DNA from: Escherichia coli
Lineage (GTDB): Bacteria; Pseudomonadota; Gammaproteobacteria; Enterobacterales; Enterobacteriaceae
DNA length: 52,109 bases
NCBI RefSeq assembly: GCF_003334815.1
Contig: NZ_QOWO01000029.1
Strand: one strand, 5' to 3'
How positions within the stretch are numbered: position 1 is the first letter of the stretch; each line of letters opens with the position of its first letter. This document shows positions 46,696 through 47,283 of the stretch, piece by piece. The notes below the pieces were generated by a model. That model made no database searches and was not told the origin of the DNA. It saw only the letters and a program-made list of their open reading frames with translations. The position numbers were made by a program, and so were the translations under genes.

Positions 46696-46784
46696 AATTT
46701 TTCCTGTCTCCAGGCCCCAAAGTAAATAATAAAAAATTCCTAAAGCTTAAGGAAAAAATATGCCCAATAAATTGGCGATGAATG

Positions 46785-46798
46785 CTGATTAAAATCAA
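46785..46798. promoter_or_regulatory. Candidate FNR/CRP-family half-site pair upstream of dcuC
   Basis: cTGATtaaaATCAA differs at one position from the FNR consensus TTGAT-N4-ATCAA and lies about 95 bp upstream of the dcuC start. Confidence 0.35.
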
Positions 46799-47283
46799 TA
46801 AAAACTGCCATTAAGACATTGAAGTTGCTGTTTTTATACATAGATAACAAAACGCATATTTAGCGGTTGGCAATTATCACATAATAATGTGTGCAAATTG
46901 ATGGTGGATTGATGCAAATTTGTTAATTGCAATGGTGTTAGCTGCGGCTGTGCGCTCAAAAAATAATCTAATATGAGCATAGGTTGACGATATATATTAT
47001 ATACTTCGTTAAGATGATTGTTGTATCTCGTTAAAAAATAAAATAATTTTTCCTTGATTGCATTTTGTCATCAAAAAAGACTTGGTTTTTCTTTTTTGAC
47101 TATTCCCATCGCAGAAAACGACGCATCATCTTTAATCGATGCGCGGAAATATTTAACTTGAACAAGCGGAAATAAATAGAGCAGCTATTCAGATTATTCT
47201 TTATGTTGGGTCTATTAAGGTTATGTTAATTGTAGCTTTGCTATGCTAGTAGTAGATTTTTGATAAATGTTTTATGGTCACAA

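Follow-up and report, generated by a model that had tools for sequence, protein, structure and literature searches.

The long dcuC/pagP spacer of Escherichia coli: probably a few short conserved protein-binding modules within freely evolving AT-rich DNA

The divergently transcribed genes dcuC and pagP of E. coli are separated by an AT-rich spacer whose length raises the question of what it holds: binding sites for regulators, a small RNA, a small-protein gene, or DNA of no specific function. In the window (the whole stretch of 52,109 nucleotides analyzed here) the spacer occupies positions 46696-47283, between the start codons of dcuC (46695, minus strand) and pagP (47284, plus strand). It is 588 bp long and has 31% GC (0.30-0.335 in 200-nt windows, compared with about 0.5 in the flanking genes), and it is the longest annotated intergenic gap in this 52-kb region, the next being 378, 374, and 371 bp. 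The longest open reading frame fully within it has 48 codons, in agreement with the earlier note on this DNA, which had described some 590 bp devoid of reading frames of 60 or more amino acids. The spacer was found in 5382 of 5426 complete E. coli genomes, in one copy per genome; its counterpart in MG1655 is NC_000913.3 655969-656556, within which the RefSeq record has no annotated feature.

Overall, the spacer most probably consists of short conserved protein-binding modules split by unconstrained AT-rich DNA, encodes neither a small RNA nor a small protein, and carries its hairpin incidentally. The room for complex regulation that was proposed for it is indeed used: published regulators include FNR acting on dcuC, and PhoP, H-NS, SlyA, EvgA, and RcsB-GadE acting on pagP. 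Since all these inputs have been described, the integration of many regulators is not a new lead, and the spacer is already known as an ordinary control region.

The divergent promoters of dcuC and pagP

The FNR-like site reported at 46785-46798 is present at exactly that position (minus strand; CTGATTAAAATCAA as written on the plus strand and TTGATTTTAATCAG on the dcuC strand) and matches the consensus TTGAT-N4-ATCAA in 9 of 10 specified bases. This match is weak by itself, as the 52-kb window contains six matches to the consensus with at most one mismatch where 2.06 would be expected by chance; the reality of the site therefore rests on conservation and chromatin immunoprecipitation. The exact 14-mer is listed as ChIP-bound by Myers 2013 at 655,281 (U00096.2), corresponding to window position 46785, with 12.38 bits by the weight matrix of that study. 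The FNR ChIP peak was placed at 655,298 (U00096.2), no more than about 12 bp away, and the site remained bound in an hns/stpA mutant. Activation of dcuC by FNR was reported as well, the aerobic-to-anaerobic mRNA ratio being 0.0498, or about 20-fold higher expression under anaerobic conditions (Myers 2013). In 47 of 49 spacers representing about 14 named genera, the sequence closest to the FNR consensus is found 86-100 nt from the start codon of dcuC; in one of the two exceptions, the spacer labeled L009, it lies at 328 nt. Even the outer C of one half-site (CTGAT) is kept in nearly all genera. Thus the FNR-like sequence is a genuine FNR site, occupied in vivo and driving dcuC.

A putative -10 hexamer of dcuC, CATATT, is situated at 46757-46762 on the minus strand, with 22 nt between it and the FNR box upstream. 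It reads CACATT in most other genera and falls within the block AAT.TGCC.AATAA, for which conservation among 38 spacers reaches at least 80%. The 22-nt distance would place the center of the box at -41.5 with respect to a transcription start predicted from the same geometry. Because the entry for dcuC in Myers 2013 is marked 'TSS not in peak region', we infer this start, near 46750, from promoter spacing; the sole listed differential sigma70 peak is at the pagP end of the spacer, not at the dcuC end. The predicted 5' untranslated region of about 55 nt (46696-46750, minus strand) is suggested by sequence geometry and the conservation profile, and its Shine-Dalgarno region is visible as a conserved CCTGT on the plus strand.

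In class II FNR-activated promoters of E. coli, such as dmsA and the FF-melR model, FNR is centered at -41.5. The dcuC promoter resembles them in its 9/10 box, the 22-nt gap to the -10 hexamer, FNR occupancy in vivo, and FNR-dependent anaerobic expression; it differs in the outer C of the half-site, and its -41.5 position is deduced from spacing. Under anaerobiosis, an FNR dimer on 46785-46798 would then activate a class II-type sigma70 promoter with the -10 element at 46762-46757 and a start near 46750.

At the opposite end of the spacer, scoring for PhoP, which had been suggested together with that for FNR, identified the box TATTAA-ggtta-TGTTAA at 47213-47229 on the plus strand, a direct repeat after the pattern (T/G)GTTTA-N5-(T/G)GTTTA of PhoP-activated promoters whose box overlaps the -35 element. 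Its score of 13.39 bits ranks fourth among all positions of the window and is close to the median of the training set (13.7), but is reached by 96 of 500 AT-rich shuffles (19%); the matrix being weak as stand-alone evidence, the argument is carried by position and conservation. The box ends 12 nt upstream of the pagP -10 hexamer TATGCT (47242-47247, plus strand), which aligns with the mapped -10 element TATTAT of Salmonella pagP, and the GTTAAG block is conserved. A sigma70 ChIP-seq peak at 655,742 (U00096.2), with signals of 37 aerobically and 366 anaerobically, corresponds to window position 47246 and thus falls on the hexamer. From spacing rules, transcription of pagP is predicted to start at about 47253-47254, leaving a 5' untranslated region of about 30 nt (47253-47283, plus strand).

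Transcription of pagP is PhoP-dependent and induced by low Mg2+ according to published work, and the PhoP site of the gene (as crcA) was placed 32 bp from the transcription start in E. coli versus 44 bp in Salmonella (Harari 2010), which the 12-nt spacing between the box and the -10 hexamer fits. The Salmonella enterica pagP promoter, assigned to PhoP architecture IV (Zwir 2012, PMC3335776), precedes an orthologous gene with the same neighbors and shares with that of E. coli the GTTAAG block, the -10 position, activation by PhoP, and a short leader. The E. coli box, however, is one half-site (11-12 bp) closer to the -10 element, at 12 instead of 23 nt, a shift that matches the published 32 versus 44 bp, and Salmonella has a second PhoP box upstream for which no clear counterpart is seen in E. 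coli. In low Mg2+, the box at 47213-47229, 12 nt upstream of TATGCT, would drive a short-leader pagP mRNA.

A conserved repeat array upstream of dcuC

Beyond the two promoters, one more conserved module was found. It is an array of direct repeats in 11-bp phase at 46898-46930 (plus strand), TTGATG-N5-TTGATG-N5-TTGTTAATTG, in which the repeats TGATG, TGATG, and TGTTA lie at 46899, 46910, and 46921, a pattern resembling sites of ArcA, in which two to five TGTTA-like repeats are spaced by 11 bp, and of other OmpR-family regulators. Within it, TGTTAATTGC has two mismatches to the ArcA box WGTTAATTAW, a loose match for AT-rich DNA. The heptamer TGTTAAT is exactly retained in 26 of the 38 long spacers (at least 400 bp), and 32 of the 38 orthologous blocks are within two mismatches of WGTTAATTAW. 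In most long spacers the distance from the array to the FNR box is about 86-141 bp, for total spacer lengths of 403-1024 bp. A few spacers of at least 400 bp have no convincing match to the array, and Klebsiella, Raoultella, and their relatives, with spacers of 281-307 bp, lack it.

These features make it likely, on sequence grounds, that the array is a docking site for a response regulator of the OmpR family, and phosphorylated ArcA is the leading candidate for the factor involved. Expression of dcuC is 4.1-fold lower in an arcA mutant (log2 signal of 7.1 compared with 9.2). In Park 2013 (PMC3798270), the spacer was given a predicted ArcA site scoring 15 bits or more, and dcuC/crcA was listed among the operons with a predicted ArcA site and no ChIP signal. 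That predicted site may be the PhoP box at 47213-47229 instead of the array, since this box is also the best match to an ArcA-like TGTTAA-N5-TGTTAA repeat in the whole window. In the literature, we found no regulator assigned to the conserved ArcA-type array upstream of dcuC. To our knowledge, and by informal comparison, the GAD box and the motifs of Fur, IHF, CpxR, RstA, and DcuR fit the array no better than those of ArcA or PhoP.

The arrangement is comparable to that of promoters controlled by both FNR and ArcA, such as focA-pflB and cydAB (Park 2013, PMC3798270), where three to four TGTTA-like repeats with 11-bp spacing are likewise located upstream of an FNR box; the 4.1-fold dependence of dcuC on ArcA is a further similarity. 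In contrast to these promoters, ArcA binding was not observed here by ChIP (PMC3798270), two of the dcuC repeats are TGATG and not TGTTA, and the distance between the array and the FNR box shifts between 86 and 141 bp from genus to genus. We propose that, at about 150-180 bp upstream of the dcuC promoter, three to four repeats would dock an OmpR-family response regulator, and that this module would serve dcuC rather than pagP.

The AT-rich center and the question of a small RNA

Between these modules the sequence diverges rapidly. The 196-bp core at 46940-47135 exists in E. coli as at least two deeply diverged haplotypes, with 15-19% difference between alleles as against 1-9% at fourfold degenerate sites of the flanking genes; in one strain the core differs by 19% and the flanks by 1.4%. 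The core haplotypes recombine independently of the flanking genes, and the core is not alignable between genera. For the middle of the spacer as a whole, divergence was 10.4%, 10.1%, and 5.3% in comparisons where fourfold degenerate sites gave 6.3%, 9.3%, and 7.2%, respectively, and 44.6% versus 38.7% for E. whittamii. The middle thus evolves at approximately the neutral rate and the core about twice as fast, whereas the promoter ends are up to about 7-fold slower in comparisons within E. coli and 1.3- to 1.6-fold slower in other Escherichia species. In Klebsiella and Raoultella the central 300-400 bp are missing altogether. The conservation profile of the spacer, proposed earlier as a check, did reveal conserved blocks; these are promoter modules bound by proteins, however, and not an RNA gene. 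A small-protein gene was rejected too, as no open reading frame of 25 or more codons is kept across the alleles.

Two hairpins are located in or near the core. The AT-rich inverted repeat announced in the earlier note was recovered close to the reported position as two perfect 10-bp arms, TCAAAAAAGA at 47071-47080 and TCTTTTTTGA at 47090-47099, with a 9-nt loop (47071-47099). Its predicted folding energy is -7.4 kcal/mol as plus-strand and -8.8 kcal/mol as minus-strand RNA. The stem contains eight A-T and two G-C pairs, and its T run belongs to the stem; there is neither a GC-rich stem followed by a U tract nor a call by the terminator scan, and a Rho-independent terminator was rejected. The second hairpin (47119-47145) has a GC-containing stem of about -10 kcal/mol and is terminator-like on the minus strand only. 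Within E. coli, three transitions in it are G-U-compatible and leave the pairing intact, a pattern that is not statistically significant, and other Escherichia species do not conserve this hairpin.

Could the AT-rich repeat nevertheless act as the palindromic site of a dimeric regulator, as a cruciform, or as a weak bidirectional terminator insulating the two promoters? Its arms match in all 10 positions, the minus-strand RNA folded in isolation has a z-score of -3.5, and the -35-like ATGACA belonging to a promoter-like site overlaps with the left arm. When the spacer was shuffled 500 times with its dinucleotides preserved, only 21 shuffles (4%), a marginal value, contained a perfect inverted repeat with arms of 10 bp or longer and a loop of 3-20 nt. 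However, the stem, at -7 to -9 kcal/mol, is nearly all A-T with no GC clamp or separate U tract, and three of the four alternative E. coli alleles (ATCC 8739, CEC13091, and Z247) have substitutions that break the arms without compensation. The exact 60-nt hairpin segment is present in 3202 of the 5426 genomes, while about 2,060 of the 5,382 spacer-bearing genomes (about 38%) have no match to it; neither E. whittamii nor E. sp. E1V33 has the repeat, nor does any of the other genera examined. Lying in the fastest-evolving part of the spacer and showing neither conservation nor covariation, the hairpin did not hold up as a functional element; such a role is highly improbable, and we judge the repeat to be an incidental palindrome in filler DNA. 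The proposal that the spacer encodes a small RNA or a long regulatory leader, with an internal promoter and a hairpin as its 3' end or regulatory structure, has one positive hint, an RT-PCR candidate in Shigella. Ssr31, a transcript of about 295 nt from the pagP strand of the same pagP/dcuC intergenic region, was predicted in S. flexneri 2a 301 and gave an RT-PCR product (Wang 2016, PMC4782007). Its evidence consists of a promoter and terminator prediction and the RT-PCR product, and RT-PCR is unable to distinguish a small RNA from DNA carry-over or read-through. In vitro, the spacer is bound by RpoD holoenzyme (gSELEX), and predicted hexamers can be written as TTAAGA-17-TAAAAA toward pagP and ATGACA-17-AATTAT toward dcuC. 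A consensus promoter scan found fewer promoter-like sites in the spacer than in its shuffles; the sole one on the minus strand is that predicted by Shimada 2014. The second hairpin retains its pairing on the plus strand. Against a small RNA stand the absence of any intrinsic terminator on that strand (the minus strand has one weak terminator-like site), z-scores of the 131-nt hairpin context that are not significant, and a covariation count over seven Escherichia sequences no better than in shuffles. An Rfam scan with E-values up to 10 returned chance-level hits only (eukaryotic families and RT-8, RF03029). The candidate segment evolves about neutrally or faster, and beyond E. coli it has either disappeared or cannot be aligned. 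In published transcript maps, the plus-strand rows of the Cappable-seq table contain no start between 653,077 and 656,393, and neither the Term-seq tables nor the SMRT-Cappable-seq supplement has an entry for pagP or dcuC; the empty MG1655 annotation mentioned above points the same way. A small RNA, for which the length of the spacer had seemed to leave room, is thus not supported and appears quite unlikely. Given the Ssr31 product and the in-vitro binding of RpoD holoenzyme, some initiation of transcription within the spacer is conceivable.

Two further explanations concern the origin of the extra length and an additional promoter. Descent of the extra DNA from a lost gene or a mobile element would agree with the variation of spacer length, from 281-305 bp in Klebsiella and Raoultella through 403 bp in Salmonella arizonae, about 411-465 bp in most Citrobacter, and 558-588 bp in Escherichia to as much as 1024 bp elsewhere, and with the action of IS1 and IS5 on the dcuC/pagP locus. 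However, the spacer had no match among 50,697 phage records, the 'plasmid' records that it matched are E. coli chromosomal sequence deposited under a plasmid label, no remnant of a reading frame is common to the alleles or species, and it contains no repeat family or terminal inverted repeats; the single copy per genome also argues against a mobile element. We regard a decayed remnant as very unlikely. A sigma54 promoter dependent on RpoN and NtrC was suggested by gSELEX peaks of RpoN holoenzyme and NtrC assigned to the spacer, the peak at 655,760 corresponding to about window position 47264. But between 46650 and 47330 the -24 GG and the -12 GC never occur together in one site, sigma54-like sequences match at best with three to four mismatches in 11 specified positions, and AT-rich DNA is a frequent non-specific target in gSELEX, so that the probability of such a promoter is close to negligible.

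Preferring, then, the reading of conserved modules split by unconstrained DNA, we suggest that the central 300-400 bp would have no sequence-specific function and would act through their composition. Expression of pagP-lacZ was reported to rise 18-fold in an hns deletion mutant, SlyA sites were predicted, RcsB-GadE contributes to pagP induction, the RpoD gSELEX table flags the spacer 'HNS', and IS5 inserts repeatedly in it under kanamycin selection. The high-affinity H-NS motif tCGWTWAATT (at most one mismatch) does not occur in the spacer and H-NS was not enriched at the FNR site (Myers 2013); direct H-NS binding in the center therefore rests on the gSELEX flag and the genetic data, from which we infer it. 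Its AT-richness would let the center serve as a platform from which H-NS silences pagP, with SlyA and RcsB-GadE relieving the silencing, and would make it a target for IS5; the center may also insulate the dcuC and pagP promoters from each other.

Long AT-rich regions silenced by H-NS, with counter-silencers and activation by IS5, are well known from bgl, flhDC, csgD, and the 750-bp 'sensory integration region' of gadE. Like them, the dcuC/pagP spacer is at least 500 bp long with about 31% GC, is hit repeatedly by IS5 under selection, and controls a gene that is strongly derepressed when hns is mutated and is relieved of silencing by SlyA and RcsB-GadE. It differs in that its center evolves neutrally, with no conserved operator islands, and in that the spacer lacks an H-NS nucleation motif.

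Significance for regulation and strain variation

The value of this region for discovery is low, as the FNR site, the PhoP promoter, and pagP's control by H-NS and SlyA and by RcsB-GadE were published previously. What the present dissection shows is which parts of the spacer, about 120 of its 588 bp, are constrained.

A bolder interpretation, in which the core haplotypes constitute a heritable 'set-point' of H-NS silencing or hidden promoters and the array is an undescribed response-regulator operator, seems doubtful to us, with a small chance of being correct. If it were true, lineages of E. coli would differ in basal lipid A palmitoylation through their core haplotypes, and the array would link a second redox or envelope signal to dcuC and perhaps also to pagP.

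The center of a silenced promoter region is seen to evolve at about the neutral rate or faster and to carry deeply diverged, recombining alleles. This divergence of the core is relevant to differences between strains in lipid A palmitoylation, IS5-mediated adaptation, and aminoglycoside tolerance.

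Extent of the spacer and the dcuC promoter

The window is part of the E. coli chromosome, and its divergent dcuC/pagP spacer is 100% identical to that of strain 300709 and 99.8% identical to that of K-12. Given the dcuC ATG at 46695 on the minus strand and the pagP start at 47284 on the plus strand, the spacer occupies exactly 46696-47283, or 588 bp. Its GC content is 31% vs about 50% in the flanks, and the biggest ORF inside it has 48 aa. It is the longest gap in the annotated 50 kb of the window, the next being 378, 374, and 371 bp, and no feature is annotated between dcuC and pagP in the matching region of MG1655 RefSeq (655969-656556). 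Among 5,382 genomes, whole-length identity of the spacer is at least 99% in 2,563, 95-99% in 988, and 90-95% in 1,831. All positions given in the earlier note for the spacer, an FNR-like site, and an AT-rich inverted repeat are correct. The spacer combines two promoter modules in a compact arrangement that is already known: dcuC is controlled by FNR, and pagP by PhoP and related regulators.

As a bare sequence match, the FNR-like 14-mer CTGATTAAAATCAA at 46785-46798 is unremarkable; the 52-kb window holds 6 consensus matches with at most one mismatch, where 2.06 are expected. The same 14-mer was given at 655,281 (U00096.2) with 12.38 bits by Myers et al. 2013, which fixes the mapping of the U00096.2 position as the window position plus 608,496. 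In that study it was ChIP-bound by FNR both in wild type and in the hns/stpA mutant, and dcuC, whose aerobic/anaerobic mRNA ratio was 0.05, was assigned to the FNR-activated class. We compared 49 dcuC-pagP spacers, collected with PagP as bait from about 14 named genera and unassigned isolates. In 47 of them, the dcuC ATG and the best FNR consensus match are 86-100 nt apart; in one of the two outliers (locus L009) the distance is 328 nt. The outer C of the CTGAT half-site is unusual, yet conserved across the spacers. Exactly 22 nt after the box on the dcuC strand, within a conserved block, stands CATATT, replaced by CACATT in other genera. From this spacing, which puts the box centre at -41.5, we infer that dcuC transcription starts near 46750, giving about 55 nt of leader; for dcuC, 'TSS not in peak region' was recorded by Myers et al. 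2013. The ChIP listing, the fixed position, and the 22-nt spacing together establish the proposed FNR site as genuine.

The pagP promoter and its regulators

At the opposite end, a PhoP PWM derived from 23 footprinted Salmonella PhoP boxes, with the box of pagP itself excluded, has its top spacer match at 47212-47230 (13.39 bits; rank 4 in the window; training median 13.7). This score alone is not significant, as it was equalled by 96 of 500 AT-rich shuffles. From the end of the box TATTAA-ggtta-TGTTAA (TATTAAGGTTATGTTAA, 47213-47229) there is a 12-nt gap to the pagP -10 hexamer TATGCT (47242-47247), which lines up with TATTAT, the -10 hexamer mapped for pagP in Salmonella. Such a gap is the architecture I/II spacing (Zwir et al. 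2012, PMC3335776). The distance from the PhoP site to the TSS of crcA (pagP) was reported as 32 bp in E. coli and 44 bp in Salmonella (Harari et al. 2010), and a shift of the E. coli box by one half-site, leaving the 12-nt gap, accounts for this difference. The pagP TSS is predicted near 47253, with a leader of about 30 nt.

A reported sigma70 ChIP-seq peak at 655,742, corresponding to window position 47246, has a signal of 366 anaerobically vs 37 aerobically (10-fold), and crcA mRNA is 3.4-fold up anaerobically. At the same time, TATTAAGGTTATGTTAA is the best match in the 52-kb window to the ArcA-type motif TGTTAA-N5-TGTTAA, with one mismatch. Therefore pagP may respond to anaerobiosis through the PhoP box. 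The highest PhoP-PWM score of the window belongs to TGGTTTTTTATTTATTTAA (42773-42791, 14.94 bits) in the neighbouring citC/dpiB spacer, also divergent and AT-rich (378 bp); this match is probably an artefact of AT-richness.

The complex regulation suggested in the earlier note has, in fact, been published previously. In addition to FNR on the dcuC side, pagP is on record as repressed 18-fold by H-NS, activated by SlyA (three putative sites), and dependent on PhoPQ and EvgAS, with a further dependence on RcsB-GadE in biofilms. Recurrent IS5 insertions into the spacer under kanamycin selection have been described. No high-affinity H-NS motif occurs in the spacer, so any H-NS binding would depend on general AT-richness. 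An RpoN/NtrC gSELEX peak was reported for the spacer; a search for a sigma54 promoter there gave none with both the GG and GC elements.

Among the neighbouring genes, PagP (47284-47844) evolves much faster than DcuC (45310-46695). Protein identity to other Escherichia species is 84-88% for PagP and 98% for DcuC, and codon positions 1+2 have diverged by 6.7-7.8% vs 2.3-2.4%, with similar divergence at 4-fold sites. Farther downstream, the available part of the Cappable-seq data contains a very strong plus-strand 5' end at U00096.2 656,590 (score 431), that is, at about 48094 inside the cspE CDS, 75 nt beyond the ATG at 48019 and lacking a -10-like hexamer upstream. Closer to the promoter, at 656,393 and 656,438, the scores are only about 2. 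The internal end may reflect cross-mapping among csp paralogues. For ybeM (deaminated glutathione amidase, 48758-49545), the annotation gives a pseudogene with a frameshift both in the background of this strain and in ATCC 8739, while Z247 and 7CC have an intact copy.

Conserved islands and the neutral centre

The adjacency of dcuC and pagP is widely conserved and the spacer length is variable, ranging from 281-305 bp in Klebsiella and Raoultella through 403 bp in Salmonella arizonae, about 411-465 bp in most Citrobacter, and 558-588 bp in Escherichia to 437-899 bp in Enterobacter. Conserved blocks are present in the spacer: alignment leaves three islands only, containing the dcuC -10 hexamer and FNR box (46757-46802), a direct-repeat array (46898-46927), and the PhoP box with the pagP -10 hexamer (47215-47246).

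The centre (46811-47205) is unconstrained, neutrally evolving AT-rich DNA between the modules. Its divergence among E. coli alleles is 5-10%, and that of its core (46940-47135) is 10-19%. For the same pairs of strains, 4-fold degenerate positions in dcuC, pagP, and crcB diverge by 1.4-9.3%, and both promoter-proximal ends by only 0.9-6.4%. Compared to E. whittamii, the centre is 45% and the 4-fold sites 39% different. No ORF of at least 25 aa is kept across alleles, phage records hold no relatives of the centre, and matches in 'plasmid' records come only from mislabelled chromosomes. Plausibly, the AT-rich centre serves as an H-NS silencing platform. In E. coli MINF_8D (locus L087), an IS1 element takes the place of dpiB, dpiA, dcuC, and the part of the spacer reaching to about window position 47134, and the sole remainder of the spacer, its pagP-proximal 150 bp, adjoins citC.

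The AT-rich hairpin singled out in the earlier note is present in the hypervariable core as a perfect 10-bp inverted repeat (47071-47080 and 47090-47099), but a role for it did not hold up. A perfect repeat of this size occurs in 4% of shuffles. Folded as RNA, the hairpin has an energy of -7.4 kcal/mol for the plus strand and -8.8 kcal/mol for the minus strand; its 131-nt context shows no advantage in folding over shuffled sequence. In the ATCC 8739, CEC13091, and Z247 alleles, arm substitutions disrupt base pairs with no compensating change. E. whittamii and E. sp. E1V33 lack the repeat, and pair counts across alleles and species do not exceed shuffled controls. The exact 60-nt segment is found in 3,202 of 5,426 genomes, and about 2,060 spacer-bearing genomes carry other versions. 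We therefore regard this hairpin as incidental. Another one (47119-47145, about -10 kcal/mol) retains pairing in E. coli via three G-U-compatible transitions, which is not significant, and is not conserved in other Escherichia species.

An unannotated small RNA in the spacer, also suggested earlier, now appears very improbable. Ssr31 was predicted on the pagP strand of the Shigella pagP/dcuC spacer, and an RT-PCR product was obtained (Wang et al. 2016, PMC4782007). RpoD holoenzyme binds the spacer in vitro, with hexamers proposed inside it and the bound region flagged as overlapping H-NS (Shimada et al. 2014); one of the proposed hexamer sites was also found by our consensus promoter scan. However, the spacer has no Rfam match and no plus-strand terminator, and its centre displays neither conservation nor covariation. 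The available plus-strand Cappable-seq rows, from aerobic culture, contain no TSS between 653,077 and 656,393, and entries for pagP and dcuC were not found in the accessible portion of the Term-seq tables.

The repeat array and the diverged core alleles

The middle island, unexpected at the outset, has the form TTGATG-N5-TTGATG-N5-TTGTTAATTG in an 11-bp phase, often followed by a fourth repeat, TTGT. TGTTAAT is exact in 26 of the 38 spacers of at least 400 bp, and 32 of these 38 match the classical ArcA box WGTTAATTAW with at most two mismatches. In most long spacers (403-1024 bp) the array and the FNR box are about 86-141 bp apart; a few of these spacers have no convincing match, and the short Klebsiella-type spacers lack the array. 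Since it stays near the FNR box despite varying spacer length, we assign it to the dcuC side. ArcA would be the leading candidate factor, and PhoP or another OmpR-family regulator an alternative one. In an arcA mutant dcuC is 4.1-fold down, and the spacer was predicted to hold an ArcA site scoring 15 bits or more, yet it had no ArcA ChIP signal (Park et al. 2013, PMC3798270). Because of this missing signal, and because the best ArcA-like match is the PhoP box, we do not tie the array to one factor.

The core (46940-47135) also forms deeply diverged haplotypes within E. coli, 15-19% apart (loci L083, L084, L085, and L086). Between CEC13091 (L085) and the window, 4-fold sites of the flanks differ by only 1.4% and the core by 19%, meaning that the core alleles recombine separately from dcuC and pagP. 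Overall, the control region is already known, and only two points in it would merit experiment, namely the array of repeats and the deep divergence of the core alleles.
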